From the UHGV virus genome UHGV-0180032: a stretch of 64,000 nt of DNA; one strand, written 5' to 3'. Every line of letters begins with the position of its first letter. The stretch's first letter is position 1. The notes below the pieces were generated by a model. The model had not been told where the DNA came from, did not search any database, and saw only the letters and a program-made list of their open reading frames with translations. Shown here piece by piece: positions 18,133-49,310 of this stretch. This stretch comes from a virus. Both the position numbers and the translations under genes were made by a program.

Positions 18133-18155
18133 GAAATGTAATCAGATATATTTTA
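18133..18155 (+). promoter_or_regulatory. conserved promoter-like motif, copy 1
   Basis: CAGATATATTTTACTTAGGTGAG; immediately followed by a 10-bp-stem hairpin (18157-18183). Confidence 0.4.
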
Positions 18156-18501
18156 CTTAGGTGAGTAGGGGCTGAACTCGCACTTCAGCCCCTATGGGCA
18201 CGTTTCTTTCGAAACGGAGTTACCACGTGATTAGGAGACAGACCAATGTCTACTGAGAAGAAAAGCGGATTGGACGAAGTCATCGAACTGTTCAAACGCT
18301 ACAACCCGGCTATTCCTCGGTAATCATAGTATTACTTAAAATTTACAGATTGACCCTTTATTCTGCTACTCGGGATACCGGTAGGGGGTAGGGGGCAATA
18401 TGTATACGGATATAAATAGCGGAGGTATACGTAGTATACCGACATACTCTTCCCAGAGGAACGTAGTGACTTCCTTATTCCTTTTTAGGAGAATAAACCC
18501 C

Positions 18502-19239
18502 ATGAGAGACTTAATTGACGATATCTTTACCAATACCAGTTTAGAGCTTTCTTCTACGGTGGTTAACGATCTAATAGGGCAACCGTATCCTGCTAAGTTA
18601 ATGTCAGTCGGTACCATTAAACCCGAAGATTATCCAGACAATGACATTATCGACTGTATAATTGACGAATACACGATAGCCAGTTACGCCAGCCGGGTCT
18701 TCTTTGTTCTTAATAGCGAAACCAGTGTCATTTTAATCTATAAGTTGATTAGTGGTGCTGAACTTGAAGTTGTAGCCGACCACATTCGTCTTATTGCGAG
18801 TACGATTGATGATTTCGCTGTTGCGCTTTTTGGAGACAGTTGGCCTTTGCAACCCCTGTTCGCTTACTTCCCACTGTTTAAGCATGGAATAGGGTTAATC
18901 CGACATACAGAAACCCTTCCCGATAACGTAGAGCTATCGCTGCTTGGACCCGGCATCGATCTTTATCCATTAAAAGACGAGGGCACGCTATATGGTTTGC
19001 GCATTTATGTTTCTCTGTTAGAGGGATACCGCGTTATTGAATTGATTGCATCAGATTTAGCAAAACAGATCCCTGAAGTAGAAACGATTTCTAAAGCCAC
19101 CCACCAGGTTGAGATTAACCTAGGCGATCCCTTATTGAAATATCACAAAGAAATTGACCTTCGTAAAATCGCCACAACAAGAGGGTGGGGGTGTGCTGAG
19201 GTTACGAATGGCTATCTGTTATTAATTAAAACCGCGTAA
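18502..19239 (+). CDS. hypothetical protein; member of a tandem paralog family with C-terminal GW...LL motif
   Basis: ATG at 18502 with AGGAGA upstream; alternative ATG at 18400 possible; C-terminus RGWGCAEVTNGYLLLIKTA resembles the ends of the next three genes. Confidence 0.45.
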   Translation: MRDLIDDIFTNTSLELSSTVVNDLIGQPYPAKLMSVGTIKPEDYPDNDIIDCIIDEYTIASYASRVFFVLNSETSVILIYKLISGAELEVVADHIRLIASTIDDFAVALFGDSWPLQPLFAYFPLFKHGIGLIRHTETLPDNVELSLLGPGIDLYPLKDEGTLYGLRIYVSLLEGYRVIELIASDLAKQIPEVETISKATHQVEINLGDPLLKYHKEIDLRKIATTRGWGCAEVTNGYLLLIKTA

Positions 19240-19264
19240 GTAAAAACCTAAAGGAGAAAATATC

Positions 19265-19804
19265 ATGATTAGTATCGAAATGAAACAACAAGTTATTGAA
19301 TTTATTAACCGGGGCGTGGGTAAACATCGTTTTGAAAACCCGTACAATATATTGTCTAACGTTATCCAACCGGGTACATTGATCACTGGTATTGAAGTAG
19401 AAAAAATCAGCGAAGATGCTGTGCTTTATTATCGCGGTTACGGGGATAGCTTTACCGAATTATTCCGTAAACTGTTTTCCGGTACCGGATGGAAAGTGAC
19501 GAGCGCGTCCTACGACGGTGGCGCGGATGTTGTTACGCTTCTAGACACGGGGAAAGCACTCTATATCGTGAACTTTACTTTCGCAAGACGCTACGCGTAT
19601 TTCCCGAACCCTCTTACGTGTACGTTAAGTAACCCAGGATTACTGTTGACAGATAAAGAAGCGGAAACACTACTTACAGAACTGAAGAAGGACGGTTGCG
19701 ACGCTGGCGATTGGGAAACATTGGTAGGGACAGCAAAAGCACACGGTTGGTATACCGTGCGTAATCTCGGTCAGCAGTTGTTGTTCTTAGCTTATAATGT
19801 TTAA
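19265..19804 (+). CDS. hypothetical protein; paralog family (C-terminal HGWYTVRNLGQQLLFLA)
   Basis: 179-aa ORF, AAAGGAGA RBS; shared C-terminal motif. Confidence 0.55.
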   Translation: MISIEMKQQVIEFINRGVGKHRFENPYNILSNVIQPGTLITGIEVEKISEDAVLYYRGYGDSFTELFRKLFSGTGWKVTSASYDGGADVVTLLDTGKALYIVNFTFARRYAYFPNPLTCTLSNPGLLLTDKEAETLLTELKKDGCDAGDWETLVGTAKAHGWYTVRNLGQQLLFLAYNV

Positions 19805-19815
19805 AGGATAATATC

Positions 19816-20943
19816 ATGCATATTTGCCATAACGCACCGTCGCACAGACTTTATCTTGAAATGCTTTTCGAGGACTACAAGAAAGGGGTGCCGAAAATAT
19901 TACTTAGCATCTCAGGTGCCACGCAAACTGAATTGTTCGGTCGTGTTTTTGGTTGTACCGTTAACGCTTTGCCAGAACCAATCTGTGCACCTGTGGATGT
20001 TTGTGTTTTCGACGAGCGAATTGAGGATTTTCAATTCACCTTTTACGTAAATGATTCTTTACCGTACGACAAACTTTACGTTCGTGAGTTGAAATCAAAT
20101 CAGCGGTTAATGTACCGCGTCTATCCACCCCACAAATGGTCGGTGCTAGAGTATAAAATCAGGCGGCTACCTTACGAGGGTGTGCAATTACTCGACCAGC
20201 AGGATATGGCTTTTCTGGAAGAACTTTGCGGATTTGAAATTGAGAAGATTCACGTAACCCAGGAAATATCCCGAAACGTACCTAGTCGTCATACCCCTAA
20301 CGGTGGATTTCCGTACGAGTTCACCGACACAGGACTAAGGCTCGTAACCGAATTTAACGACGTAATGTATTACGCAGTGTGTATTGAACGTAAAGTAGTG
20401 GAGAAAGAAATGGCAAGTACATTGAAAGAAGAATTAGCCCAATTCATTCGTGATGTTGAAGAGAAAAGCAAGAGCGATCACATATTCTCACAACGCTATC
20501 CTGAACTTATTGACGAAACCACCGATAGTGTCGTCGACGGTATACGCATTTTCCCAAGTGGTCTTGCAATCTACCGACTACCTAGCGTTAACCAGCTTAA
20601 AGTCATGGAAATGCTAAAAGACGTTTTAGCAGAAGCGGGTTGGGAATATCGCTTCGATTGCAATTTCGAAGGGATGGCGTTATTCGTTACAAAGAAAAAC
20701 TATACCTTGTCAATCGATCTACCTAAAAGTCAATATTACAGTTTCTTCCCGAAAGCGGATGACCGCACTGAAAAAGAACCTGCGATGTTACTTGATGCGG
20801 CAGAATCCAATACGTTAATGGTGCGTCTGCGGTCAATTGACAAAAAGTTAAACACCAGTCATTTAACGACGATCGGTAAAGATTACGGTTGGAAATCTGT
20901 CGAACCGTACGGCAGTCAGCTGCTGTTTGTTGCTGACCTTTAA
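19816..20943 (+). CDS. hypothetical protein; paralog family (C-terminal YGWKSVEPYGSQLLFVA)
   Basis: 375-aa ORF; shared C-terminal motif; followed by a terminator hairpin. Confidence 0.55.
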   Translation: MHICHNAPSHRLYLEMLFEDYKKGVPKILLSISGATQTELFGRVFGCTVNALPEPICAPVDVCVFDERIEDFQFTFYVNDSLPYDKLYVRELKSNQRLMYRVYPPHKWSVLEYKIRRLPYEGVQLLDQQDMAFLEELCGFEIEKIHVTQEISRNVPSRHTPNGGFPYEFTDTGLRLVTEFNDVMYYAVCIERKVVEKEMASTLKEELAQFIRDVEEKSKSDHIFSQRYPELIDETTDSVVDGIRIFPSGLAIYRLPSVNQLKVMEMLKDVLAEAGWEYRFDCNFEGMALFVTKKNYTLSIDLPKSQYYSFFPKADDRTEKEPAMLLDAAESNTLMVRLRSIDKKLNTSHLTTIGKDYGWKSVEPYGSQLLFVADL

Positions 20944-20969
20944 TAAGTGAAAATACACTTTCTCTAACT

Positions 20970-20994
20970 GCCGCGCTTTAGTCGCGGCTTTTGT
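20970..20994 (+). terminator. intrinsic terminator
   Basis: GCCGCG/CGCGGC stem followed by TTTTG. Confidence 0.5.
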
Positions 20995-21010
20995 TAAGAA
21001 GGAAATAGAA

Positions 21011-21784
21011 ATGAAAGTCCATTTAGACGACCTCTTTAAAACTGAACCGTATATGGTTAAAGGTTCATTGGCTTCACTGTTGTTAGATGATAGATTTCAT
21101 CGAACGCTCCAATTACAATCGGTCGAATCCGCACCAACAGAAGACGTGGGTCTTTATCAACGTATCACTTATACACGCGGAGAATATCGGCGATATAAAC
21201 CTGATACGCTAACCGTTAAGCTCTGGCAAGTGGCCACAGGCAAAGTATTAACTTATCGCACTGTTGGTCTGTACTACGTTGAACGTGCCTACGCGTGGTT
21301 AGAAGAAGTTAAAGAAATGGATTACGACCGCTTAAGCAAAAGACTGCGCGATAACAACGCCAGTTTACCGATACGCAATTATTTCTCCACAATTGAAAAT
21401 AGTCGTTGTTTCGTTTCACGCGAATCCATGATATTGCCTGGGGCTGATGTTCAGACGACACTAAAAGATGTGGTTGTGAGGAAAATCTTTCATGAATCTG
21501 AACACGTTGGATTTCGTATCTATTTAACTCACAAGAGGCCATTTACCGTGATTCATCTTGTTACCGTACCCGAAGGCTCAGCGGTCGTACGTGAACTTCC
21601 TGACGCACGTGACCGTAGTCCTAATGAGCCGCTTTACTTAATGTCAGGAACAAAATCAGAATCTTTGATGTCCCGTTACAGCATGGTTGATGTTGTTGAT
21701 ACTGCTATGAAGTTAGGTTGGAAAGAAGTACAGCAGCACGGCAAACAATTGCTGTTTATCGCAGATGTAAATCTCAATAACTAA
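21011..21784 (+). CDS. hypothetical protein; paralog family (C-terminal LGWKEVQQHGKQLLFIA)
   Basis: 257-aa ORF with GAAGGAAA RBS; shared C-terminal motif. Confidence 0.55.
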   Translation: MKVHLDDLFKTEPYMVKGSLASLLLDDRFHRTLQLQSVESAPTEDVGLYQRITYTRGEYRRYKPDTLTVKLWQVATGKVLTYRTVGLYYVERAYAWLEEVKEMDYDRLSKRLRDNNASLPIRNYFSTIENSRCFVSRESMILPGADVQTTLKDVVVRKIFHESEHVGFRIYLTHKRPFTVIHLVTVPEGSAVVRELPDARDRSPNEPLYLMSGTKSESLMSRYSMVDVVDTAMKLGWKEVQQHGKQLLFIADVNLNN

Positions 21785-21796
21785 AGAGGTGGTACC

Positions 21797-22375
21797 GTGT
21801 ACCGATTAATAGAAATGAGAAAAGACGTTTGGTTGGAAAACCTCGTCGATGGGGAGCTCGAGGGAATAGAGCTTTCCTTACCAGAGAGAGCGGACACGGT
21901 ATTGGCCTTTCTGGTAAAACAGGCAGACCGTGAACCGGTAGGAATCTTCACTGTGGACTATAAAGATCCACGAGGAATCCATTTACGGAACATTTGCAGT
22001 GGTTTGGAAAACTTACCGGCTAATCCGTTCTTAAACTACGCAAAACGTAAACTCCAACCGGGACAACACCTCTGGGTAACGTTATCGCCTGACGTTAGGA
22101 TCATACGTGACGATTACTCGGCGTTTGTACAGGCAACGAAAGTCAGTCTGTATAACCCGAACGCAGAGCGTACCGATATGCCGTTTATAATTACCTTAGA
22201 AGACGATGGAACGCAAGAAGGTATCGAGGCAATTACGGAATTAGTAAACTCTTATCCGGTTGCCACTATGGAGTTAGAAAACCCAAGCCGACTACCGTTG
22301 GGTGACCTGCTCGAATGGATTGAACTGAATACAGAATTCTTAATCAATTCTCGTCAGTATCGATTCGATGTTTAA
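21797..22375 (+). CDS. hypothetical protein (192 aa)
   Basis: GTG start with AGAGGTGG RBS; followed by terminator at 22380-22410. Confidence 0.5.
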   Translation: MYRLIEMRKDVWLENLVDGELEGIELSLPERADTVLAFLVKQADREPVGIFTVDYKDPRGIHLRNICSGLENLPANPFLNYAKRKLQPGQHLWVTLSPDVRIIRDDYSAFVQATKVSLYNPNAERTDMPFIITLEDDGTQEGIEAITELVNSYPVATMELENPSRLPLGDLLEWIELNTEFLINSRQYRFDV

Positions 22376-22379
22376 CAAC

Positions 22380-22410
22380 GGTGGGGTGTAAGCCCCACCT
22401 TTTATTTTTT
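22380..22410 (+). terminator. intrinsic terminator
   Basis: GGTGGGG/CCCCACC stem followed by TTTTATTTTTT. Confidence 0.7.
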
Positions 22411-22434
22411 GTTCGCTGACATTAAAAATAATCT

Positions 22435-22457
22435 CAGATATATATTACTCAGGTGAG
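22435..22457 (+). promoter_or_regulatory. conserved promoter-like motif, copy 2
   Basis: CAGATATATATTACTCAGGTGAG; followed by hairpin 22456-22474; upstream of the secreted-protein gene cluster. Confidence 0.4.
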
Positions 22458-22504
22458 AGTTAAGATTAACTCTTTTACTTGGTAACCCCACGAGGAGCAA
22501 AACA

Positions 22505-22966
22505 ATGAAAATCTTCACTTCCTTTTTAATCGCCCTTTTCGCAATCGGATTCAATACTGCACACGCCGCAATCAATAGCTGGGAACAACTACCGAACCCA
22601 GGTCAGGCTGTTTACGAAATTGAAGATACCGCCGGAAACGGACTGTCTATCAACTGTGACACTGAAACTGCGAATCGCAAATTTTACGGTCGCATGGTTT
22701 GGTATTACGGGGAACCTGTAGGTGCAACTAACGCTGAAGACAACACGTTGGATATTGTCGTAAATGGCAAAACCTACAACATCCCTACCGTGGATGGTAG
22801 TGACAAAGCAGAACTCGCTTGGGTGGCTTTCGTTAACGCTATCGGTAACGCCAAAACGTTCAGTGTGAATATCAATGGTAACGAAGCTGCTAACTTTACC
22901 GTAGAAGGCGAACGTCTGTCGGAAACTTTCTTCCAGAACTGTGGACACACCCGTCCTAACAAATAA
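22505..22966 (+). CDS. secreted/periplasmic hypothetical protein
   Basis: N-terminal signal-peptide-like segment MKIFTSFLIALFAIGFNTAHA; GAGGAG RBS. Confidence 0.55.
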   Translation: MKIFTSFLIALFAIGFNTAHAAINSWEQLPNPGQAVYEIEDTAGNGLSINCDTETANRKFYGRMVWYYGEPVGATNAEDNTLDIVVNGKTYNIPTVDGSDKAELAWVAFVNAIGNAKTFSVNINGNEAANFTVEGERLSETFFQNCGHTRPNK

Positions 22967-22988
22967 GTATTAATCTTTTTTAGAGTGC

Positions 22989-23381
22989 GTGAAAATGAAT
23001 ATCAGAACTATACTTTATACAATCATTATTTTCTGTGCAATCGGCATTACTGGCACTTATGCTTTCGGTGGCTCGGATGTCAGCCATTACGAACCGGCTC
23101 CTGACTCACCGATTATCAACCCGGATGAGTCCCCTACGTTAATGCGCAGTTTCGGTAAACTGCAAGTTTATCGCTTAGTACGTGGTGAAACGTGTACCGG
23201 ATTACTCATTGCTGACACCCGTGCACAAGTCTACCAACGTCTGACGGATATCGCCTGCGAACAACCAAAAGTCATGTCGGTCAGTATTCATCCGTTAGAG
23301 GTCGGTAATTATACTGCTGTGGACTTCTTCCATAATGCAGAACTGATTGGCCGTATTACTTTAAATCGTAGCGCTGAATAA
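22989..23381 (+). CDS. secreted/periplasmic hypothetical protein
   Basis: N-terminal hydrophobic leader ...ILYTIIIFCAIGITGTYA; start could be GTG 22989 or ATG 22995. Confidence 0.5.
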   Translation: MKMNIRTILYTIIIFCAIGITGTYAFGGSDVSHYEPAPDSPIINPDESPTLMRSFGKLQVYRLVRGETCTGLLIADTRAQVYQRLTDIACEQPKVMSVSIHPLEVGNYTAVDFFHNAELIGRITLNRSAE

Positions 23382-23399
23382 TTTAATGGAGAATTTACA

Positions 23400-23888
23400 A
23401 TGAAACGTTTACACACCCTGATGTTCTTCGTGGCTATTCTTTTCACAGGCTTTACCTTTAACGCAGAAGCGGCTACCGTAAAACAAGCTCTTAGCTGTAA
23501 CCCGGAAGCCTGGGCTGAACAACCTGGTGCGTGTCCATCAACGTACGAGTTGTACGAAGGTGACGCTACCTACAAAGCCGCTATCGACAAAGCATTAAAA
23601 CCGGTCGGACTGAGCGGCATGTTCGGTAAAGGCGGCTATATGGATGGCCCTGGTGGAGGTATCACGCCAGTAAACATTAACGGTACAGTCTGGCTCCAGG
23701 GCGACGGTTGCAAAGCCAATACCTGCGGCTGGGACTTTATCGTAACACTCTATAACCCAAAAACCCATGAAGTTGTTGGCTACCGTTACTTTGGTTTAGA
23801 TGACCCGGCCTACCTGGTTTGGTTCGGTGAAATTGGCGTGCATGAATTCGCGTATCTGGTGAAAAACTACGTAGCTGCGGTTAACTAA
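23400..23888 (+). CDS. secreted Ivy-like (lysozyme/lytic-transglycosylase inhibitor) candidate
   Basis: Signal peptide MKRLHTLMFFVAILFTGFTFNAEA; KGG-Y ... GCKANTCG loop resembling the Ivy C-K-x-x-x-C motif, compared against a sequence recalled from memory. Confidence 0.4.
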   Translation: MKRLHTLMFFVAILFTGFTFNAEAATVKQALSCNPEAWAEQPGACPSTYELYEGDATYKAAIDKALKPVGLSGMFGKGGYMDGPGGGITPVNINGTVWLQGDGCKANTCGWDFIVTLYNPKTHEVVGYRYFGLDDPAYLVWFGEIGVHEFAYLVKNYVAAVN

Positions 23889-23903
23889 TTTAAGGAGTCT
23901 ATC

Positions 23904-24314
23904 ATGAAAACGTTTATCAAAACTTTACTCGTTGCTGTAACTGTTCTGTTCTCTCTTAACGTGGCAGCAAAAACAGTAAAACTACCGGCGGGTATCAAAT
24001 ACGTCAACAGTACCGATGAATTCTACTGCACAGAAATTGACGGTCTGTATTGCCAGACAAAGAATTTGTTTGAATACAAAGGTAACAGATATGTTTTCGT
24101 TGTTGAGCAAGGCGGTGCCTGGTGCTACGACAGCCCTATGTCGGTACTCAACCTGGAAACTTGGAAAGCACAGAAAATTGAATACAAAGACAACCAACTG
24201 TGTTCAGGCGAAAACAAACCGTTCTTCAAAATCAAAAATGGTGTCCCGACTGTAGGTATTATCGACACCTCTGGAACACCAATCGTTGTAGCTCAGGACA
24301 AACTTAAAATCTAA
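23904..24314 (+). CDS. secreted/periplasmic Cys-containing hypothetical protein
   Basis: Signal peptide MKTFIKTLLVAVTVLFSLNVAA; AAGGAG RBS; several Cys residues. Confidence 0.55.
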   Translation: MKTFIKTLLVAVTVLFSLNVAAKTVKLPAGIKYVNSTDEFYCTEIDGLYCQTKNLFEYKGNRYVFVVEQGGAWCYDSPMSVLNLETWKAQKIEYKDNQLCSGENKPFFKIKNGVPTVGIIDTSGTPIVVAQDKLKI

Positions 24315-24324
24315 GGAGTAAACC

Positions 24325-24714
24325 ATGCGTCTTATCTGCGCTTTGTTGGCGTTTTTCTCAATCGGAGTTATGGCTTCTACACACATCGACGATTTATTAC
24401 TTACCCCGGCAACGAACACAGACTATCACTACAACCCACCGGGTTTTGAAGTCTGCGAAGGCGATGCAGGCGAATGCCAAGAAGTTGGCGCAGATGGACG
24501 CTATATACTCGTAAAAGCAGACGGCGGGACAACCTGTCCTGCGGGTTATTATTTCGTACTTGACTCTGTAGCAAAAGAGGTGCTTCCTGTAACGACCAAA
24601 ACGTGTGACCCCACAGTTGTACTAACGCTTGCGAAAAGCAAATCACGTGACCGTCATCTTATCGTCATCGAAGAACGCGGTGAGATGCTAGGCGCTATCG
24701 AATTAGATTACTGA
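24325..24714 (+). CDS. secreted/periplasmic Cys-containing hypothetical protein
   Basis: Signal peptide MRLICALLAFFSIGVMAS; AAGGAG RBS; terminator follows. Confidence 0.55.
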   Translation: MRLICALLAFFSIGVMASTHIDDLLLTPATNTDYHYNPPGFEVCEGDAGECQEVGADGRYILVKADGGTTCPAGYYFVLDSVAKEVLPVTTKTCDPTVVLTLAKSKSRDRHLIVIEERGEMLGAIELDY

Positions 24715-24725
24715 TGTGTAGTCTT

Positions 24726-24763
24726 GACCCCGGTTCGTGCCGATTCGTCCGGGGTCCTTTTTA
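24726..24763 (+). terminator. intrinsic terminator
   Basis: GACCCCGG/CCGGGGTC stem followed by CTTTTT. Confidence 0.65.
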
Positions 24764-24792
24764 CGACTTGTTTTACCTAAAGGAGAATTAAA

Positions 24793-25269
24793 ATGCGTTT
24801 ATCTAATGTTTATCAAGCAGCCCAATTCCATCACGAACTGACGGCTAAGCCTGAGTATATTCGCCACAACTTAACGGTGGCATGGAAACTGTTAGTGATT
24901 GCTGATGCAGCACGGCACAACGACCAGGAAACCATTATCAAAACTGTGCGTACTTTACGCCCTATTGACCTGGAAACAATTTGGTCGTTTGACTTAACTC
25001 GAATTTATCATCGTCGTTTTAATGCGGCGGTGGATGCGATACGTCCTTATTTCCACTATTTGCAAGCAACATCGGACTGTGGTCCATCCTTAGAGTGGGT
25101 CTTGGTACAAAGCGTATGGAGCGATTACATTTATCTCCTATCTTTAGAGACGGGTGAATGCATTATCGCTAACGAGGTATTCTCAACCAACGCCGAAATG
25201 TATCGTTCCCACGCTACTATCCAGGGTGTCTCACAGCCTATCTTATCACTCACGCACTTAGGGCTGTGA
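24793..25269 (+). CDS. hypothetical protein (158 aa)
   Basis: AAAGGAGA RBS; flanked by terminators. Confidence 0.5.
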   Translation: MRLSNVYQAAQFHHELTAKPEYIRHNLTVAWKLLVIADAARHNDQETIIKTVRTLRPIDLETIWSFDLTRIYHRRFNAAVDAIRPYFHYLQATSDCGPSLEWVLVQSVWSDYIYLLSLETGECIIANEVFSTNAEMYRSHATIQGVSQPILSLTHLGL

Positions 25270-25271
25270 TT

Positions 25272-25306
25272 AGCCCGGCCCCGCTGTGTACGGGGCTTCT
25301 TTTTTG
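25272..25306 (+). terminator. intrinsic terminator
   Basis: GCCCCG/CGGGGC stem followed by TTCTTTTTT. Confidence 0.65.
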
Positions 25307-25323
25307 CCCAAGGAAACTGAAAC

Positions 25324-25932
25324 ATGAACGAAATTACTTTGGTTCGTTTTATCGAAGCGATGCATCGAAACGAAGCTAATCCGCACTCTCCGTTATTCAT
25401 CGATTTAATGGAGGAAGAAGTCGAAGGGTTCTTAGCGTACCCGCGTTTGAAAGCGTATTTCGAACGTAAAACACCAACCGCTTACGAGAAGTTGATGTAC
25501 GCGTTAGACAACCGTACTACGCTGAACACCACACCGTTTAAAGCGCTGGAAGCAATTGACCCTACCGGGGGCGCAGGTATCCCACAACGTGTTGTGTTCT
25601 ACTACATCGACAACGGCCGTATTAAAGCCGACGTTGTAAACTGGATCTCCGAAGGGGAAATCCCAGAAACGCGTACTTTTAACCTCTGTCCGGTGGAAGA
25701 AGGTTGGGTCGCAGGAACGCATTATTCCTATCCGTATCAAAGCATCAAATCGCCTTATCTGTATCCGGTGTATTTAGATGACGTTACGCCAGGCAAATGT
25801 ATTCCCGTTACCAATCTGATTTGCTTACTGACGATGGAAGTTGTTGCGTCAGATGCAGGCCAGGCTTGGGTTGAGCAATCGAAGAATATCCAAAACTGGC
25901 AGGAGATGGGTTACAAACTCTACCAGCCGTAA
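25324..25932 (+). CDS. hypothetical protein (202 aa)
   Basis: ORF between two terminators; no recognisable motif. Confidence 0.5.
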   Translation: MNEITLVRFIEAMHRNEANPHSPLFIDLMEEEVEGFLAYPRLKAYFERKTPTAYEKLMYALDNRTTLNTTPFKALEAIDPTGGAGIPQRVVFYYIDNGRIKADVVNWISEGEIPETRTFNLCPVEEGWVAGTHYSYPYQSIKSPYLYPVYLDDVTPGKCIPVTNLICLLTMEVVASDAGQAWVEQSKNIQNWQEMGYKLYQP

Positions 25933-25937
25933 TACCA

Positions 25938-25986
25938 CGAGAGAACCTTCGGGTTCTCTCCCTTCTCTTTTATTTTTTTTTCTTTT
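25938..25986 (+). terminator. intrinsic terminator
   Basis: GAGAGAACC/GGTTCTCTC stem with TTCG loop followed by a long T-run. Confidence 0.75.
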
Positions 25987-26017
25987 TACACCACGCTCCG
26001 TGAATATGGAGGTGGAC

Positions 26018-28522
26018 ATGTTAAAAGTTGAACGTATTGTACTTAAAGGATTTACCGGAATGGGGTTACACGAAATCGAAACCTTCGATTTTACTATCCA
26101 TTCCCCGACCACCATTATCCTCGGTGGTAACGGCTGCGGTAAGACCAGCTTACTGTCCGTGTTTCTACCTATCGCACCTTCGAAATCCGAATTCCGTGAC
26201 GGGGGTTCTTACACCAATATCTGTTTGGTTAACGACCATCGTTACAAGTTTAAAGTTGCACGTAAAGGCAACTCACTGGTTTGCGATATCGAGAACCTGA
26301 CGACGGGTACCAAAATCGTCGAGCAAGGTAATGCGAAAGTGTACAACTCTCGCGTGGAAGAAATCACGGGTATTACAAAAGAGATTAAAGAGTTACTGAA
26401 CGGGGAAGTGCTTTTAACCGATGCAGGAACGGAACTGCGTCGTAAGTGGTTCTACCGTTTAAGTACATCAGACTTAACGTACGCGTTAGGTTTTTATCAA
26501 CGTTTACGAAAAAACCTGACGATGCTAAACGGCGGTATTGAAATCACCAGCCGTAAAATTGCAGAGTTGCGTACCCGCGTAATTGATAACGAGGAAGAAC
26601 GACAGCAGTTAGCAACACGGTTAAAAGCATTAGAAGCAGATTTACGTGAACTCAACAAACAGATCGAACAACTGCCTGGTCTGAATCGTGACGTTACGGT
26701 GGCAACGATTCAATCGCTATTGCTTAAAATCGAAGCACCGATTAATGCTATCTTGGAACACCGTGGTGGATTACCTACGGAAGAACAGGTAGAGGAAGCA
26801 CGACGCGTTGAAGCCACTGCCCGTGAAGCGGTGGTCTCTGCTGAAACAGAACTGTCTATGCTAAACAAAGATTTGTCTTTGTTGATGGACGAGTCTACCC
26901 GCCAAGATTACCTGATGCGAAATCACGAAGGGTTAAAGAACACGGTTGCGAAACTGCGCGAGTTATTAAAGCAGTGGGACACTGAGCACCTTTTCCCTGA
27001 ACTGTTTGCGGAGACCGTTAACATCGACCAGCTTAAAGCAGCGACGGATGCGCGTGTCTGGGGACAACGTTTAGGAACAACGCTGGACGCCATTAAATCA
27101 ACGGAACGGTTGAACGTACTGGAAGAGAAACTGTTGACCTTAGACCAAAACTCGTCTGGGTTGCGTGACCGACTGCAACGTGTTGAAAACGTATTGCAGA
27201 ACCTCAACCACGAACGGAATCACTATTTGGAAACCGCCGAGGTTGATTGTCCGCAGTGTCAGTTTAAATTCCGTCCGGGTGTCCGTCGTTCTTTGCCTGA
27301 ATTGGAAGAAGCCATTCGTGGGCAGATGGAGCAACGTAATACGTTACAGACTCAACTTGATTCCGTGTTGCGAGACCGTACGGAATTAGAATCGGACGTT
27401 AATTACATGCGTCAAGTACGAGAAATCGTTTTAACATACTCGAAAGACCCGGTATTGAGTTTGTTCTTTAAACGTCTCCAGGAGCGGAATGTCTTTACGG
27501 ATAACCGCAGTCAGTTCGGCAGTTTGTGCGCAGAGTTCGATCGTGAACTTTATTCCGCAATTGAGTACCACGAAACGAAACACCGTTTCGCTAAAGCGGA
27601 AAAAGAGTGGGCAAACGCAGTTGCAGCGGTAGGTAACGTTGACGGTGCACTACAGCAGAAAATTGCCTTCCAACAGGAACGTTTGGGTAAGGCAACAGAA
27701 ACGCTCTCAGAGCGCCGTAGAGAGCACGCAGTTGCTAATGATACCTTTTGTTATCTAAACGAACTTAAAGCCACTGTAGACAATTTTAATGCGGTTTTTG
27801 AGCGTTTAGAGAACGATGTTAAGGTAACATTAACCAACACGGTGGTCGAAACGTTATTAAACGCCCGAGAAAACAAGTTGGATGCGTTCACCACAGCACG
27901 AGAACGGTATCGTCAAATGGAAAACGAACTCAACCAACTTACTGCGTTAGAAAAGGAGTTATCAGATTTACAAGCGCAGCAATTCAATAACAAGCTGATG
28001 ATTCAAGCGTTCTCGCCCGAGAAAGGGGTACTACGCAAATACTTCTACAACGCTATCGTGAGAATCACGGAATTGATGACGCGGTATATCGAACAAGTCT
28101 GGACCTACCCTATGCGGGTCATGCCGTGTGACTTAACCGACGGTGACTTAGACTACACCTTCCCAGTGCAGTTGAAAACCCATCCTGAACCGGTACCTGA
28201 CGTACGGAAAGGGTCGAAAGCACAGCGAGCCATCTTTAATTTGATGTTTCGTTTAACCGCTTACAAGGCCCTGAAACTCCATCAGTATCCGCTACTGTTG
28301 GATGAACCGTCAGAAGGGATGGATGAAGAACACCGAAATAACCTCGTTGGGTTTATTAAAACCTTGGCGAATTCCGGTGAGTTCTCTCAGTTACTGGTGG
28401 TGTCTCACGAAGCAGAAATTCATTCAAAACTTAACGAAGCCGCATACTGTGTTATTGAACCTGAAGGCGTAACACTGCCTGCGGTTTACAATGAAGGAGT
28501 AAAAATTGTCTACGCAAACTGA
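26018..28522 (+). CDS. Rad50/SbcC-like recombination ATPase (T4 gp46-like) with zinc hook
   Basis: Walker A GGNGCGKTS near the N-terminus; long heptad-rich middle with CPQC hook; C-terminal KGSKAQRAIFNLMF (signature-like), LLLDEPSEGMD (Walker B/D-loop) and VVSHE (H-loop); start 26018 (or 26006) chosen over the ORF-track 25841, which would run through the upstream terminator. Confidence 0.75.
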   Translation: MLKVERIVLKGFTGMGLHEIETFDFTIHSPTTIILGGNGCGKTSLLSVFLPIAPSKSEFRDGGSYTNICLVNDHRYKFKVARKGNSLVCDIENLTTGTKIVEQGNAKVYNSRVEEITGITKEIKELLNGEVLLTDAGTELRRKWFYRLSTSDLTYALGFYQRLRKNLTMLNGGIEITSRKIAELRTRVIDNEEERQQLATRLKALEADLRELNKQIEQLPGLNRDVTVATIQSLLLKIEAPINAILEHRGGLPTEEQVEEARRVEATAREAVVSAETELSMLNKDLSLLMDESTRQDYLMRNHEGLKNTVAKLRELLKQWDTEHLFPELFAETVNIDQLKAATDARVWGQRLGTTLDAIKSTERLNVLEEKLLTLDQNSSGLRDRLQRVENVLQNLNHERNHYLETAEVDCPQCQFKFRPGVRRSLPELEEAIRGQMEQRNTLQTQLDSVLRDRTELESDVNYMRQVREIVLTYSKDPVLSLFFKRLQERNVFTDNRSQFGSLCAEFDRELYSAIEYHETKHRFAKAEKEWANAVAAVGNVDGALQQKIAFQQERLGKATETLSERRREHAVANDTFCYLNELKATVDNFNAVFERLENDVKVTLTNTVVETLLNARENKLDAFTTARERYRQMENELNQLTALEKELSDLQAQQFNNKLMIQAFSPEKGVLRKYFYNAIVRITELMTRYIEQVWTYPMRVMPCDLTDGDLDYTFPVQLKTHPEPVPDVRKGSKAQRAIFNLMFRLTAYKALKLHQYPLLLDEPSEGMDEEHRNNLVGFIKTLANSGEFSQLLVVSHEAEIHSKLNEAAYCVIEPEGVTLPAVYNEGVKIVYAN

Positions 28523-28813: not shown

Positions 28814-28820
28814 GTTAGAA

Positions 28821-28851: not shown

Positions 28852-28863
28852 CGAGGGGAAACC

Positions 28864-28992: not shown

Positions 28993-29024
28993 TTTCATCT
29001 TTTTGCGTCTGTAAGGTCTGATAA

Positions 29025-30212: not shown

Positions 30213-30710
30213 ATGCTAACGATACTTCCAGAATCGGATATTAACAACGACCTGTTTAACGCGCCTGAACGCTTCAAGGTCGTTACGATAAATTGCGTAG
30301 GGGCAATGGGTCGGGGTATCGCTTTAGCGTGCAGAGAACGCTATCCTGGGCTTTATCAGGACTACCGAGAGCGTTGCTTCGCTAACGAAATACGAATAGG
30401 GAATGTGTACGTTTACCCCGAGGAAAACTGCATTCTCTTACCAACAAAAACACATTGGAAACTGAAATCCCAGGTTTCTTATGTTATCGCGGGTATCACC
30501 GCGTTGGCAGATGCCGCAGAAAACTTAGAGGGTGGGGTGGCTTTACCGCCGTTGGGGATGGCTAACGGTTGGTTGACAAAAGCTGAACGTCAACAAATCT
30601 TTTTGTTTATCGAAAAGAAACTCGTACCGAGGAGACAACATTACCGTTTCTATTTACCTGATACGCTTTACCAAGAAGCAAAACCTTTAATTCCAAACCT
30701 TTTTAAATAG
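30213..30710 (+). CDS. macro-domain (ADP-ribose-processing, TARG1/DarG-like) protein candidate
   Basis: N-terminal VVTINCVGAMGRGIALACRERYPG resembles the macro-domain MG-x-GIA ligand-binding strand; later LPPLGMANG; assignment by motif memory only. Confidence 0.4.
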   Translation: MLTILPESDINNDLFNAPERFKVVTINCVGAMGRGIALACRERYPGLYQDYRERCFANEIRIGNVYVYPEENCILLPTKTHWKLKSQVSYVIAGITALADAAENLEGGVALPPLGMANGWLTKAERQQIFLFIEKKLVPRRQHYRFYLPDTLYQEAKPLIPNLFK

Positions 30711-30728
30711 ATATTATCATTAGGGCAC
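30705..30728 (+). promoter_or_regulatory. promoter-like motif, degenerate copy
   Basis: AAATAGATATTATCATTAGGGCAC; overlaps the stop of the macro-domain gene. Confidence 0.25.
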
Positions 30729-39521: not shown

Positions 39522-40189
39522 TGCTGATTGTTTTTAGTCAAGCGTTATCGATGGCACCGAGTTATATCCAGATACGCTTTTCAGCAATTGCGCGTCAGCA
39601 GTGGGGCTTTAAAGCCCCCTATTCTGACGACCACTATACACTCGGAGAAGTAGCACTTGAACTCGCCTTACGCTCATTGTGGGAAATTATCGCATTGTAT
39701 AATGCAGGTTGTGATATACCGAAAGATTGTTTCCCACAACGGGTGATTGCGCAAGGTACTACGAACACTTACGGTAATCCGGCATTGGTAGAAGAGTGCT
39801 TAGGCTACGCTAACCAGTCTGGGGAATTGCAACACAACTTTAATCTGGTGATTAACAAAGTCTGGAGTGAGCTGGAAAGCTACCCTGAAAAGATTATCTG
39901 GTTTGATCGTAACCAATTCGTTAAGGAGGTGGCCAGTAAACGACCTGTACGTTTAGTTACCTTAAAACCCACCGACCTTGATTTGAAACAAACGTATCCC
40001 TTCCCGGAAGAAATTCAACTTTCTCCAGAAACTGTAGGTCACACTATTTTCAAACAAGGTGACGCCTGGATATTGCCTCACGATCTAGACCGTTACTTGC
40101 TCAACTCCGATCAGATTCACTCCGGCTATGATTCTCTCGTGAAAGCGTTTCACATCGATCCCTATTTCGCTAAAAATTTTCTTAGATAG
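39518..40189 (+). CDS. hypothetical protein (223 aa)
   Basis: ORF overlapping the upstream stop (ATGA). Confidence 0.45.
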   Translation: MMLIVFSQALSMAPSYIQIRFSAIARQQWGFKAPYSDDHYTLGEVALELALRSLWEIIALYNAGCDIPKDCFPQRVIAQGTTNTYGNPALVEECLGYANQSGELQHNFNLVINKVWSELESYPEKIIWFDRNQFVKEVASKRPVRLVTLKPTDLDLKQTYPFPEEIQLSPETVGHTIFKQGDAWILPHDLDRYLLNSDQIHSGYDSLVKAFHIDPYFAKNFLR

Positions 40190-40207
40190 ATATTATTCAG
40201 GTGTAGA
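40184..40207 (+). promoter_or_regulatory. conserved promoter-like motif, copy 3
   Basis: TAGATAGATATTATTCAGGTGTAG; upstream of gene 40227. Confidence 0.35.
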
Positions 40208-42583: not shown

Positions 42584-43516
42584 ATGTATTTGTACAAAAG
42601 TAAAAAAGTAAAAGGTATTAGAGACTGCCTTAGACAAATGGGGAGTCAGCATCTAGAAAATGTCATGGAAGAAAATCAAACAAAAGAAAATCCTGTCTCG
42701 AAATGGATAAAAAAGAATCGTAAGCATTTAACTAATGCCTTTATACCCTACGACGCTGAGTTAGGTCTCAAAGATCCCCGTTCCCTTCACGCACAAACAT
42801 TGGCAATTGGATGGCTATACGGTGGTGCTTCCTTAATATCCAATCGAGCACTTAGAGAACTTGTTTTCGAGACTGAGATGCCCAGTAAATTCCCCGAAGA
42901 ATGGTTGGACTTTATACCCACATGGACTGTGGCAATCGATGTAGGTAAAGAGGATGAGACTTTCTTTCTCGGTTATCGAAAAAACGGGGAGAGAAGGTTT
43001 ATTATAATTGCTACAAATACTGATTACGGGTTAACAGAAGGCGTTACCACGATCGCCACCTGCTCGTTAGAGATATGTAGCGTTGGAAACGGGCTTGTTG
43101 AAATCGATTATACAACTGGCGTACAGACCGAACAAGAGAAGACGTTATGGCTATCACTGGCCAAAACCGCCATATCGTTGATATTTCTCTGTACGCTAAT
43201 CCCGCCTAATCTCAGAGGGTCTTTCAATGACATTAAGTTCAAAGAAATCAAAAAGAATGGTAGCATAAGTCACGAAATCAAACCTCGTGAACGTGACGTT
43301 AAAATAGACATCACGCCAGGACAAGTGAAATATCTAAAGGGATTTAACACCGACTTGAAAACCATGGAAGGTATCAAACACGCCAAGGCTGCACATATTC
43401 GTCGTGCGCACTGGCGTAGATACTGGGTTGGCCCAAGAAACGGTGAAAGGAAGAGAAAACTTTACTGGATTCCACCGACATTTGTCCGAGGTTACGTACC
43501 CCACACGCAAGACTAG
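42584..43516 (+). CDS. hypothetical protein; paralog pair with C-terminal AHIRRAHW-R-W-GP motif
   Basis: AGGAGCA RBS; C-terminus KAAHIRRAHWRRYWVGPRNG...WIPPTF. Confidence 0.55.
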   Translation: MYLYKSKKVKGIRDCLRQMGSQHLENVMEENQTKENPVSKWIKKNRKHLTNAFIPYDAELGLKDPRSLHAQTLAIGWLYGGASLISNRALRELVFETEMPSKFPEEWLDFIPTWTVAIDVGKEDETFFLGYRKNGERRFIIIATNTDYGLTEGVTTIATCSLEICSVGNGLVEIDYTTGVQTEQEKTLWLSLAKTAISLIFLCTLIPPNLRGSFNDIKFKEIKKNGSISHEIKPRERDVKIDITPGQVKYLKGFNTDLKTMEGIKHAKAAHIRRAHWRRYWVGPRNGERKRKLYWIPPTFVRGYVPHTQD

Positions 43517-43526
43517 GAGAATTATA

Positions 43527-44411
43527 ATGTTAAGACGCAGAATTTATGGAGACACGCTTCGACGTATTAGTGAAGCTATAGAGACTGCACACAAAGACTT
43601 GTTTGGTCTGAAAGAAGATCGTTTTCTAACGTTTGTCAGGGAACACAAGAGACAACTTCCCGTAACCTTTCTGCCCGTTAACGACCCAACGTACCGTGAG
43701 TTCGGCACCACCAAACAGGTGCCGTATTCTATCCGTCAATCATTAGGTTTGGGTTGGCAATACGCAGGTATTGAAATTATCTCTGATAACGAGTTGATGG
43801 CGTTACTTGCAGACACAGAACGTTTAACGGATATTCCGTACGCGTGGATTGAAGCCATCCCTTCATTCACCTTTTCCGTGACTGTCAAGATTAACGAACT
43901 TCCTGCTACGCTCTTTATCGGTCGTCGTAAATTCGAAGGTGAAGAAGTATTGTTCGTTTTACGGTGGGTGGAGATAAATCAGCGGCACTGTTGGACAACC
44001 AAGATTTATCGGTTCAACAGAAAGGCAGATGACTTTGTTAGTTTAGAGCCTTACTTTGCTAACGAGTCAAAGGACGAGGAACTTCTGGATGAGGTACATA
44101 TCGGTTTATATCTTTCCTCGCGGGTGAAGAAATCGGATCGCGAGAGACGGGAATACCGTGGTAGAACGACACGTTACGTACCTGATACAGAAATCCTTCC
44201 ACGCAGAGAACCTGTCGTTGTTGACGTCAGTCCAGTACAACGCGAAGACTTAGAGAAGCAACGCAGGGAAGGCAGGAGAATCTGTTTAACGCCGCATCGT
44301 GCTGCACACATACGCAGGGCACACTGGAAACGGGTCTGGTGTGGGCCAATGACAGGACCACGCTGGCAGGAGTGGCGATGGATTGCACCCACCTTTATAT
44401 CTGGTTTTTAG
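43527..44411 (+). CDS. hypothetical protein; paralog of 42584-43516
   Basis: AGGAGA RBS before ATG 43527 (track start 43404 overlaps the upstream gene); C-terminus RAAHIRRAHWKRVWCGPMTG...WIAPTF; also shares mid-region GW-Y-G motif. Confidence 0.55.
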   Translation: MLRRRIYGDTLRRISEAIETAHKDLFGLKEDRFLTFVREHKRQLPVTFLPVNDPTYREFGTTKQVPYSIRQSLGLGWQYAGIEIISDNELMALLADTERLTDIPYAWIEAIPSFTFSVTVKINELPATLFIGRRKFEGEEVLFVLRWVEINQRHCWTTKIYRFNRKADDFVSLEPYFANESKDEELLDEVHIGLYLSSRVKKSDRERREYRGRTTRYVPDTEILPRREPVVVDVSPVQREDLEKQRREGRRICLTPHRAAHIRRAHWKRVWCGPMTGPRWQEWRWIAPTFISGF

Positions 44412-47175: not shown

Positions 47176-47475
47176 ATGCGTTATCAAACGGAGATTGTGG
47201 AACGCTTAAGCGAAGGTTTAGCCAGCGTCAGTCTGGAAACAGCAGCGGCATTTCGTGAGACTTTCGCTACTTTCTTTCCCGATCGTGAATCTTTTTGTTT
47301 AAAGGTCGGTGAATATTATTCCAAGTTACTCGAACACTACGGTTATCCGCCTGTGAAATTCGACGTACCTGAAAACACCGACGACATCAGTTATTGGATT
47401 GAAACCCTCGAAGCAGGGACACTTTCCAACTTGCGTAAGGCGGTAGAAAATGAAACTCGATCCAGCGCGGCGTAA
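47176..47475 (+). CDS. hypothetical protein (99 aa)
   Basis: AAGGAG RBS. Confidence 0.5.
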   Translation: MRYQTEIVERLSEGLASVSLETAAAFRETFATFFPDRESFCLKVGEYYSKLLEHYGYPPVKFDVPENTDDISYWIETLEAGTLSNLRKAVENETRSSAA

Positions 47476-48118
47476 AAAAGCAGAAGCTTACGCCTTACAA
47501 ATCTTAAGCCTGGTTGACCCCTCTGGGATTAACGCGGAAGCAGCAAAGAAAGCCTTTGCACGAATGACGGACGAACAGTTTAATCGTCTTCGTGAAGGGC
47601 TACCGATTTACAACCCGGTCGGCAGTAAAGTTAAAATCGACCACATGCGAAACATCGAACTATGTCGTGTTTTAGGTTTGAACCTGGAACAACGGTTGTG
47701 GTTAACTGAACCGAAAACGGGTGTTTTCCATCGTACCCGCTACCCGCATCTGGTGCTACGTTTACCTGCACGTCGTCAAACGCAGATGCAAGAGAAGAAA
47801 ATGGCGGTAGCGAAGAACGACAAAGTTCGTGATAAACTCTCCGGCCAGGTTGTTGGTCCTTCTAAAGCATCTGGTGTGTCTTTCCCAGAAGCGTACATCA
47901 TGTACTCCGATGGTCACGACTGGACACTGAAGGAGTTTCTGTGGGCGCGTGGGGGTAACGAAGCGTTACAACGTGCGTTCTATCAATCGTTACGCCAAAC
48001 CGGTAAGGGACGTATTGACCTACCGGGGGCAGAACGTACCAGTTCAAAAGCAACGCGTACCTGGTCTGCGTATCTGAAAGCGATGCACATTGGTAACAAC
48101 ATAGGCCATCCGTCATGA
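47450..48118 (+). CDS. hypothetical protein (222 aa)
   Basis: ORF overlapping the upstream gene end. Confidence 0.5.
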   Translation: MKLDPARRKKAEAYALQILSLVDPSGINAEAAKKAFARMTDEQFNRLREGLPIYNPVGSKVKIDHMRNIELCRVLGLNLEQRLWLTEPKTGVFHRTRYPHLVLRLPARRQTQMQEKKMAVAKNDKVRDKLSGQVVGPSKASGVSFPEAYIMYSDGHDWTLKEFLWARGGNEALQRAFYQSLRQTGKGRIDLPGAERTSSKATRTWSAYLKAMHIGNNIGHPS

Positions 48119-48837
48119 GATTTTCTCGACGTTTTTTGATTGATATCGATGCGTTGTTTGACACCCGAATCGGTTGGGTCAAAGCCATCAAACCTGAAAG
48201 ATTGGAAATTATGGATTACGACGTTTATCGTCGTCGTTTTACGGAGGAATGGGCGACTGTCTTGGGGTTTGAGAATTGGAAAGAGGAGTATCAGAAACGC
48301 GATAAACGTGCGTTGATGAATGCGGAACCCACCGAACTGTTGTTGACGATGAAGAACGAGTTCGAATGCATGTTACTCGAAATCGAGATGCATTCGCCTA
48401 TCGAAAAACCGACGTTGACGATTAACACCTGGCCGTATACTGACCTTACTGACCAAGAAATGCAAACGTTCTTGCAGATGTTCCGTATCTATTACGATAT
48501 GGTGCAGGTTGAGCTAGTGTCGTGGCCGCATTCGGAGCTTACGCCAGGTCGTTTAGCGACAGCTTGGGATTGCTGGATAATGTACGATTGGTTCGCTTGG
48601 ATTGAACTCAATGCGAAACATCTGAAAAAGCCTATCCCTAGCTTTACCATTACACACCCTGCCCTGCTAACACCGGAGCTTACAAAAGAGACGGTAGAGC
48701 AGCTTAAACGCGATGGTGTAAATCCGTTCAAGGAACACATCCGGTTTATGGCAGAGTGGGTCGGTGTCGACCCACGTGATTCTGCGCTATTTAGTCTGGC
48801 TCGTCCGAAGAAGGACGCGCAAACGCCGCAGTCATAA
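48115..48837 (+). CDS. hypothetical protein (240 aa)
   Basis: ATGA-coupled ORF; 3' end overlaps the convergent gene. Confidence 0.5.
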   Translation: MRFSRRFLIDIDALFDTRIGWVKAIKPERLEIMDYDVYRRRFTEEWATVLGFENWKEEYQKRDKRALMNAEPTELLLTMKNEFECMLLEIEMHSPIEKPTLTINTWPYTDLTDQEMQTFLQMFRIYYDMVQVELVSWPHSELTPGRLATAWDCWIMYDWFAWIELNAKHLKKPIPSFTITHPALLTPELTKETVEQLKRDGVNPFKEHIRFMAEWVGVDPRDSALFSLARPKKDAQTPQS

Positions 48838-49255
48838 TGGACTTCACGTCAATTTGTTCGCCAACCGGAGCCAACTCCCCTTCCGAGATTTCTACGTTAG
48901 GAATGTCTGGAAGGGTGGGTTGGTAACTATTATTTTCATCAGGTTCTTCGTCGTGACGTTTTATTTTCACGTTGCCACGCTGCATCAGAATCGTATTCAG
49001 TGCGTTAGCCAAGTCTTGGTTCGCTTCACTGTTTTTCTGGGCAGCGGCAACACGACGTTTAGAAATGATTTGCTTATCTAGGTCGTTTAATAACGTCCCG
49101 ATACGATCCACGGTCTTTAAGTCTTTGTGAGCATTAGGATCGTCTAAGATTAGATTGACAATTCTGACACGAGCTTGTTGCGTTTGGCGGAGAAGCGATT
49201 CTTCGTCGTCTACTTCACCATCTAACGCCTGGTATTTCACTTCTTCTTCAGCCAT
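48791..49255 (-). CDS. hypothetical acidic protein (154 aa)
   Basis: Minus-strand ORF with GAGGTGG RBS; convergently overlaps 48115-48837 by 47 nt. Confidence 0.45.
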   Translation of the reverse strand: MAEEEVKYQALDGEVDDEESLLRQTQQARVRIVNLILDDPNAHKDLKTVDRIGTLLNDLDKQIISKRRVAAAQKNSEANQDLANALNTILMQRGNVKIKRHDEEPDENNSYQPTLPDIPNVEISEGELAPVGEQIDVKSIMTAAFARPSSDEPD

Positions 49256-49284
49256 TTAAAACCACCTCATTTTCAAAAAGAAGT

Positions 49285-49310
49285 CAGACAGATATTATTT
49301 ACGTGAGACA
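49285..49310 (+). promoter_or_regulatory. conserved promoter-like motif, copy 4
   Basis: CAGACAGATATTATTTACGTGAGACA; upstream of gene 49328. Confidence 0.35.

Follow-up and report, generated by a model that had tools for sequence, protein, structure and literature searches.

The DNA analysed here, a window of 64,000 nt, is syntenic with the genomes of the Erwinia phage phiEaH2 and the Salmonella phage SPN3US, and its source is, as judged from the sequence, an uncultivated jumbo phage of the phiKZ-like (Chimalliviridae-type) kind. Genes cover 95% of the window in the gene map made in this analysis. One of them encodes the betaC subunit of a virion RNA polymerase (vRNAP): its product is 85% identical to SPN3US gp218, which has been assigned as the vRNAP betaC subunit (PMC5694885), while the remaining four vRNAP subunits are annotated in SPN3US and encoded outside the window. 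Five copies (P1 to P5) of an AT-rich motif, tTCAGAyAGATATTAYy(TA.GTGAG), occur on the + strand and all fall within the non-coding part of the window, which makes up approximately 5% of it (Table 1). The initial annotation had positioned four of these copies correctly, and the first one (at 18133-18155) about 10 nt too low.

Table 1. Motif copies, stem-loops and neighbouring features, in positions of the 64,000-nt window
Feature	Position	Strand	Details
P1, candidate promoter	18131..18165	+	core 18142-18157; strict 22-mer 18144-18165
Stem-loop after P1, GC-rich, 12-bp stem GTAGGGGCTGAA / TTCAGCCCCTAT	18165..18195	+	-22.3 kcal/mol; z = -3.6
Intrinsic terminator GGTGGGG..CCCCACC + T-run	22380..22409	+	end of the P1 operon, immediately before P2
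P2, candidate promoter	22423..22457	+	core 22434-22449; strict 22-mer 22436-22457
Stem-loop after P2, AT-rich, 5' arm starting in the conserved GAG	22455..22474	+	z = -2.3
P3, candidate promoter, ATAGATATTAT type	30692..30726	+	core 30703-30718
P4, candidate promoter	40171..40205	+	core 40182-40197
vRNAP betaC subunit gene	47450..48118	+	phrog_3233 'RNA polymerase beta subunit', 2.4e-93
P5, candidate promoter	49273..49307	+	core 49284-49299
Weak stem-loop after P5 (CAUUCU/GGAGUG)	49309..49323	+	z = -1.8, marginal

Several lines of evidence show that the five copies are real. First, the exact 22-mer AGATATATWTTACTYAGGTGAG occurs twice in the window (P1 and P2) and gave no match in 100 shuffles with up to three mismatches tolerated. 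Second, a scan with a 16-nt matrix returned exactly five window sites above 21 bits, all on the + strand, the runner-up scoring 12.7 bits; these high scores are partly obtained by construction, because the same five sites served, together with four phiEaH2 sites, to build the matrix. Third, Markov shuffles scanned with the 16-nt matrix yielded on average 0.13 sites reaching 15 bits.

As the initial annotation had also noticed, the copies are intergenic or overlap a stop codon, and they precede + strand genes. P1 is flanked by the divergent genes 17148-18113(-) and 18246(+), and P5 by the divergent genes 48791-49255(-) and 49328(+). P2 follows an intrinsic terminator and stands 48 nt 5' of the ATG at position 22505. 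P3 overlaps the stop codon of gene 30213-30710, with a transglycosylase gene downstream, and P4 overlaps the stop codon of gene 39518-40189, the ATG at position 40227 being found 30 nt further on. In all five cases the next gene has the same orientation as the motif and starts 30-80 nt downstream. Most of the genes located downstream of the sites have no known function. Neither the Rfam scan nor the tRNA scan matched anything in the entire window; the leader block CGACYATTAAYCTAAAGGAG, which is present in the cassettes of relatives, was absent from the window under the pattern used; and the five + strand copies of CTTTTTACR in the window lacked significance (five copies were reached in 8 of 100 shuffles).

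The motif is conserved in related phages. In the 240-kb genome of SPN3US, a matrix derived solely from P1-P5 detected 28 sites of at least 12 bits, versus 3-8 in shuffles. Nineteen of these sites reach at least 18 bits; they are all on the + strand, about 45-150 nt (mostly 45-80) 5' of a co-oriented start codon. All five sites of the window and 18 of the 19 strongest SPN3US sites are in intergenic DNA, the exception, at position 25224, falling within a gene. Two SPN3US sites, 15612 and 28967, precede ACQ60_gp244/243 and gp232/231, respectively. We infer that ACQ60_gp243 and gp232/231 are putative subunits of the non-virion polymerase (nvRNAP), for the sole reason that they are annotated as RNAP beta subunits outside the five vRNAP subunits. 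In the intergenic regions of phiEaH2 and SPN3US that are orthologous to those of the window, the motif stands out as an invariant island amid diverged DNA; no strong counterpart of P1 is present at the corresponding phiEaH2 position. In the IMG/VR database, 47 exact matches to the strict 22-mer are distributed over 13 contigs (twelve of 107-246 kb and one 7.4-kb fragment), with the same strand used throughout any one contig; each of the 12 large contigs, which include phages from two or more named genera, carries it two to seven times. The strict 22-mer gave zero matches in 596 Gb comprising 185,579 bacterial and archaeal genomes. The consensus of 29 sites from three phages reads T..AAa..attTcAGATAgATATTAtcTa.gtGAg; its core positions carry 1.1-2.0 bits, ATATTA being invariant save for its third position, and an invariant A located 8 nt 5' of the 16-mer is accompanied by AAA and aTT blocks.

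It is worth noting that, according to reviews and 5'-end mapping, every profiled phiKZ-like phage uses AT-rich motifs of this kind, centred near -10, as its early promoters. The window motif agrees with the early promoters predicted for the phages OBP (...TTTYARRYAKATATTATYWWADTG), N1M2 (TBYAWWWWWTTTCARRYAKATATTATYWAAGTGWA), 201phi2-1 (...TATATTACDWHDGTG) and phiKZ (TATATTAC) (PMC7058600), and its T-rich block (near -20) and A-rich block (near -30) match the N1M2/OBP consensus and the description of 201phi2-1. It shares with phiKZ-like early promoters (PMC7058600, PMC7598289, PMC8244752, PMC11512511) the core AKATATTAY, the upstream T-rich/A-rich blocks, the downstream GTG, the intergenic and co-oriented location in roughly 20-30 copies per genome, and the occurrence in the family of a split multisubunit virion polymerase. 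Two differences are that promoters have been mapped in phiKZ-like relatives, whereas those of the window phage, an enterobacterial-type relative of the phiEaH2/SPN3US clade, are predicted here from sequence, and that a strict 22-nt subclass occurs here, invariant across genera and coupled to an immediate stem-loop. Similarly, the Bacillus jumbo phage AR9 has an over-represented motif before its early operons, which has been ascribed to an injected multisubunit polymerase, confirmed as marking early start sites and predicted in about 34 copies; however, AR9 differs by its consensus sequence, its uracil-containing genome and its phage lineage (PMC5312081).

From these lines of evidence, we propose that the five sites are very probably early promoters of a phiKZ-like jumbo phage, recognised by the multisubunit polymerase that the phage encodes and injects. 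This enzyme is the likely reader because the family carries a vRNAP, the window encodes betaC, proposed to be part of the enzyme that reads the motif, and phiKZ transcription does not depend on the host polymerase. Position, orientation, cross-genus conservation and the published phiKZ-like early consensus all agree with what the initial annotation had suspected, a promoter specific to the phage with conservation reaching far past a -10 hexamer, but the phage-modified polymerase or phage regulator to which it had attributed recognition is probably wrong, the family having its own multisubunit enzyme.

By analogy with the mapped promoters of relatives, the five sites would belong to the early class, and initiation would probably occur at or beside GTGA. 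The element recognised by the vRNAP would span about 35 nt, with A-rich and T-rich blocks near -30 and -20, respectively, the extended AT-rich core AGAyAGATATTAY around -10 and GTGA as the start region. The resulting transcript would begin with a 20-80 nt leader harbouring a GGAG ribosome site, continue through blocks of mostly small + strand genes, and end at GC-rich intrinsic terminators. In the strictest variant AGATATATWTTACYYAGGTGAG, represented here by P1 and P2, a stem-loop follows directly 3', its 5' arm opening within the conserved GAG, and would thereby occupy the very 5' end of the mRNA, as is probably the case for the P1 stem-loop.

Reading by the nvRNAP, which would turn the sites into middle-class promoters, appears improbable. 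It is true that dRNA-seq of phiKZ gives a second motif, TACT after an A-rich run, for the middle genes, and that the strict variant has TTACT behind its A-rich block. However, this phiKZ motif is weak and centred at -22, whereas the window motif corresponds position for position to the early consensus TATATTAC / AKATATTATY, and most of the copies have TATC or TATT, not TACT. Furthermore, two SPN3US sites precede putative nvRNAP subunit genes, which are necessarily transcribed before the nvRNAP exists.

The hexamers TATATT/TATTAT in the core, together with the location of the sites upstream of genes, raise the question of whether the sites could be host sigma70 promoters, or T4-like sites for a phage-modified host polymerase, with these hexamers as the -10 box. 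A sigma70 consensus scan of positions 17900-31000, which covers P1-P3, flagged none of these three and detected no -35/-10 pair at them; sigma70-like sites were, if anything, depleted in this region (11 versus 20.4 expected). In addition, the invariant positions of the motif lie outside the -10/-35 layout, the strict 22-mer is missing from the bacterial and archaeal genomes searched, phiKZ-type phages transcribe without the host polymerase, and this phage has a vRNAP subunit gene. We therefore regard host-type promoters as very improbable.

The hairpins that had been reported directly after the first two copies were confirmed by folding (Table 1), and the z-scores revealed no hairpin after the copies at 30703 and 40182. 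The hairpin is thus placed outside the core element, because three of the five window copies have no significant one. Stems anchored in GGTGAG and 7 bp or longer follow 71% of the 41 unique strict sites, versus 13% of shuffles, and their sequences vary from site to site. The sense RNA folds better than the antisense RNA at 33 of 39 strict sites, which points to an RNA-level feature. These counts come from per-sequence folding and from an anchored-stem count, both with shuffled controls; RNAalifold predicted no structure from an ungapped MAFFT alignment of 40 strict sites, because the loop lengths vary among sites. The GC content of the stems is 44%, and at least five T in the 8-nt tail were found at just 2 of 41 sites. 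A leader terminator or attenuator was rejected as the identity of the post-promoter hairpin, which has AT-rich stems and no U-tract. An N4-like DNA-cruciform promoter was also rejected, the hairpin being 3' of the core, missing from two to three of the five copies and asymmetric between sense and antisense. Its role would most plausibly be the stabilisation of the mRNA.

That the conserved sequence acts mainly in RNA, as a processing site, a translational operator or a hairpin leader attenuator and not as a promoter, is likewise very unlikely: the element is strand-specific, the conserved hairpin of the strict copies folds better in the sense RNA and conditional terminators are known in phiKZ 5' UTRs, but most non-strict copies have no hairpin, the hairpin is not terminator-like, conservation is highest in the AT-rich core, which corresponds to experimentally mapped promoters in relatives, and P1 and P5 have no upstream co-oriented transcript to process.

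As an extension of the early-promoter proposal, we tentatively consider, as a rather unlikely possibility, that the strict 22-nt promoter, the stem-loop and the fairly fixed leader (the median distance from GGTGAG to ATG is 56 nt at the strict sites) form a discrete 'immediate-early expression cassette', the RNA hairpin of which has a function of its own. Such a cassette could move by recombination, because P1 is without counterpart at the same place in phiEaH2. If this were true, the hairpin might protect the 5' ends of early mRNAs, or mark early mRNAs for handling or export from the early-infection vesicle.

The literature searched on phiKZ-like early promoters either makes no mention of hairpins or mentions them only for terminators, sRNAs and unrelated contexts. 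Two other systems associate a promoter with a hairpin. In T4-type phages, Arbiol et al. (2010) reportedly described PeSL cassettes, in which an early promoter, of the sigma70 type read by the host polymerase, is combined with a stem-loop; the order terminator, promoter, stem-loop is said to be repeated among small early genes, and the cassettes may spread by recombination. The window sites resemble PeSL cassettes in architecture but, unlike them, have no sigma70 layout at the sites scanned. In phage N4, early genes are likewise transcribed by a virion-injected polymerase, from promoters associated with a small hairpin, but there the DNA hairpin itself is the promoter, lies 5' of the start and is used by a single-subunit enzyme (PMC4496689), whereas the window hairpin is 3' of the conserved core, optional and RNA-like in its behaviour.

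The motif is an already known kind of element, that of the phiKZ-like early promoters, and it leaves the current picture of jumbo-phage transcription unchanged. The sites provide a predicted promoter map for an uncultivated jumbo phage, marking the starts of probable early operons, which are the usual home of host-takeover and anti-defence genes. For the engineering of these phages, the invariant 22-mer and its hairpin offer a practical candidate signal for strong expression that does not depend on the host. Together, these data indicate that the early-promoter element has been kept nearly unchanged across the enterobacterial genera Seoulvirus and Erskinevirus and related metagenomic phages, paralleling the highly conserved virion polymerase subunit.

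Five copies of the motif (P1 to P5), all on the plus strand, occur in the window, as the initial annotation had claimed; its coordinates were correct for four of them and about 10 nt too low for the first one. When aligned on ATATTAY, all five have the 16-nt core TCAGAyAGATATTAYy in common. P1 and P2 carry the exact 22-mer AGATATATWTTACTYAGGTGAG (the strict variant), which found no match in shuffles of the window, even with three mismatches allowed, and P3 to P5 belong to a looser ATAGATATTAT class. A matrix scan of the window returned exactly these five sites above 21 bits, all on the plus strand, the sixth-ranked site reaching 12.7 bits and Markov shuffles averaging 0.13 sites of at least 15 bits; the high scores arise partly by construction, the matrix comprising the five window sites and four phiEaH2 sites, and the independent test is the scan of the SPN3US genome. 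Coding sequence makes up 95% of the window in our manually built gene map, and all five copies are intergenic or lie on a stop codon ahead of plus-strand genes, as first described, each with a co-oriented start codon preceded by a GGAG ribosome site 30-80 nt downstream. The matrix scan found no motif upstream of the minus-strand genes of the window, whose annotated homologs are structural (baseplate, virion and tail-fibre proteins).

Motif copies and other features of the window
Feature	Coordinates	Strand	Remarks
P1	core start 18142	+	22-mer at 18144-18165; hairpin, folding z = -3.6
P2	core start 22434	+	22-mer at 22436-22457; hairpin, z = -2.3
P3	core start 30703	+	no following hairpin in the folding test
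P4	core start 40182	+	no following hairpin in the folding test
P5	core start 49284	+	hairpin marginal, z = -1.8
Paralogous genes, P1 operon	18400-21784		four consecutive genes
GC-rich terminator	22380-22409
Leader-like sequence	24757-24790		CTTTTTACGACTTGTTTTACCTAAAGGAG
P3 leader	30719-30811		about 95 nt, to transglycosylase start codon
Intergenic terminators	33553-33572, 34165-34186, 53492-53513		near-identical stems, CCTACTCC...GGAGTAGG
Adjacent overlapping ORFs	42584-43516, 43404-44411		both match phrog_6160
RNA polymerase ORF	47450-48118		PHROG 'RNA polymerase beta subunit'

The phage, which is uncultivated, falls within the phiEaH2/SPN3US clade. DNA identity over short stretches amounts to about 74-75% with the Erwinia phages phiEaH2, Stratton and Asesino, and to about 68-69% with Salmonella phage SPN3US and relatives, all of them 240-kb jumbo phages; the gene order of the window is that of phiEaH2 and SPN3US, and SPN3US and Asesino are nucleus-forming Chimalliviridae. 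The product of the RNA polymerase ORF is 85% identical to SPN3US ACQ60_gp048, which is gp218 by our own mapping of RefSeq to original gene numbers, and gp218 is betaC, an essential component of the virion RNA polymerase, which has five subunits and is ejected together with the DNA (PMC5694885). Their common phrog_6160 match makes the two overlapping ORFs tandem paralogs.

The motif is best read as belonging to a known kind, that of the early promoters used by the virion polymerase of phiKZ-like jumbo phages. In all jumbo phages encoding such polymerases, early operons are preceded by a conserved, AT-rich, roughly 10-nt motif centered near -10; it is an early promoter in every phage profiled and has been ascribed to the virion polymerase (PMC7598289). 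The 28-32 early promoters of phiKZ combine an extended -10 box with T-rich sequence upstream of -19 (PMC8244752, PMC10914365), and those of 201phi2-1 have conserved -10, -20 and -30 regions (PMC11512511). The published consensus sequences are TBYAWWWWWTTTCARRYAKATATTATYWAAGTGWA for N1M2 (31 copies), BSHAWWWWWTTTYARRYAKATATTATYWWADTG for OBP, ...TTTRARR_BTATATTACDWHDGTG for 201phi2-1 and TATATTAC for phiKZ (PMC7058600). Aligning 29 sites of the window, SPN3US and phiEaH2 gives T..AAa..att TcAGATAgATATTAtc Ta.gtGAg as consensus, in which the A located 8 nt before the 16-mer never varies; this is the same element. This identity, the position of the copies and their cross-genus conservation uphold the initial proposal of a phage-specific promoter.

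Regarding conservation, the motif is kept in the syntenic intergenic regions of P2, P3, P4 and P5 in both phiEaH2 and SPN3US, where it stands unchanged within DNA whose remainder is 63-81% identical per alignment column; for P1, phiEaH2 offers no strong counterpart. Scanning the complete SPN3US genome with a matrix made from the five window sites only yielded 28 matches at 12 bits or more (versus 3-8 in shuffles), including 19 at 18 bits or more, all on the plus strand. With the annotation mapped by hand, 18 of these 19 are intergenic (the exception, 25224, lies within a gene) and are followed, at about 45-150 nt (mostly 45-80), by a co-oriented gene. Exact occurrences of the strict 22-mer in IMG/VR number 47, spread over 13 contigs (12 of 107-246 kb and one 7.4-kb fragment) and always on one strand per contig; bacterial and archaeal genomes totaling 596 Gb have no match. 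Contig IMGVR_UViG_3300045988_095954 (151,598 bp), the probable source of the window, shows this pair of strict sites at the same spacing of 4,292 nt, their flanks being identical, and carries two further strict copies outside the window.

Three other readings, a promoter of the middle class used by the non-virion polymerase, a purely RNA-level element or a host sigma70 promoter, are improbable even when taken together, and each faces specific counter-evidence. SPN3US sites 15612 and 28967 precede RNA polymerase subunit genes (ACQ60_gp244/243 and gp232/231, respectively), which we take to be non-virion polymerase genes because they are not among the five virion polymerase subunits; sites ahead of such genes are predicted by the early-promoter model. 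A sigma70 scan of 17900-31000 flagged none of P1, P2 and P3 and found 11 sigma70-like sites, fewer than in shuffles (20.4 ± 5.0), which fits a phage not relying on the host polymerase. The phage-modified host polymerase suggested initially is not supported.

Several observations concern the surroundings of the motif. The core GATATTATC, nearly a palindrome, can be read on the minus strand as well, at 14-16 bits, in divergent intergenic regions of relatives (SPN3US 15612/15634 and 191600/191622; L001, another relative, 34664/34686), about 30-60 nt upstream of a minus-strand start codon, which suggests a shared bidirectional promoter; at P5 (49284-49306) this reading is weak (0.6 bits), the flanking sequence being nonetheless conserved. 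The P3 leader, strongly conserved in phiEaH2 and SPN3US, has no Rfam match; its hairpin CCGUG...CACGG shows three compensatory pairs among only three sequences, and the short reading frame that its AGGAG precedes is not conserved (ATG in SPN3US, CTG in the window). The four P1-operon genes look like diverged paralogs with a common C-terminal ...GW..V...G.QLLF.A motif and no PHROG match; P1 and its operon lack a clear counterpart at the corresponding place in phiEaH2. The three near-identical terminator stems (0 expected by chance) recall the sequence-conserved terminator motif reported in phiKZ. The leader-like sequence, located after a terminator hairpin and with no promoter core ahead, resembles the post-hairpin leader (…TTTACGACTTGTT…CTAAAGGAG) of related phages' strict promoter cassettes, and could represent either what is left of a cassette or a leader signal in its own right.

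The hairpin initially noticed after P1 and P2 was confirmed by folding. Strict sites display a constant order: T-run or terminator, ATTAAAAATAATTTC, 22-mer, hairpin, and a leader with AGGAG and ATG at its end (median GGTGAG-to-ATG distance, 56 nt). Of 41 unique strict sites, 71% are followed by a stem that is anchored in GGTGAG and runs for at least 7 bp without interruption, versus 13% of shuffles, and the 5' arms comprise 26 different sequences, so the arms vary yet still pair. Folding z-scores average -2.0, and the sense RNA folds better than the antisense at 33 of 39 sites (interrelated, hence not an independent sample), which points to an RNA-level rather than DNA-level structure. A terminator was rejected (stem GC, 44%; U-rich tail in only 2 of 41 sites). 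As transcription would start at or beside GTGA, judging from published statements on promoter position, the transcript would have the stem at its very 5' end. In E. coli, 5'-terminal stem-loops slow 5'-end-dependent mRNA decay, and we tentatively favor this role for the hairpin. That the strict variant is tightly coupled to a stem-loop, probably situated at the transcript 5' end, is a modest addition, of which we found no description in the literature searched.

From the sequence, position and conservation of the motif and the presence of the polymerase gene, we infer the enzyme and timing: the injected virion polymerase would recognize a double-stranded element of about 35 nt and transcribe blocks of plus-strand genes early, up to GC-rich terminators such as that listed in the table, P1 and P2, with their hairpins, probably giving the strongest or most stable transcripts.
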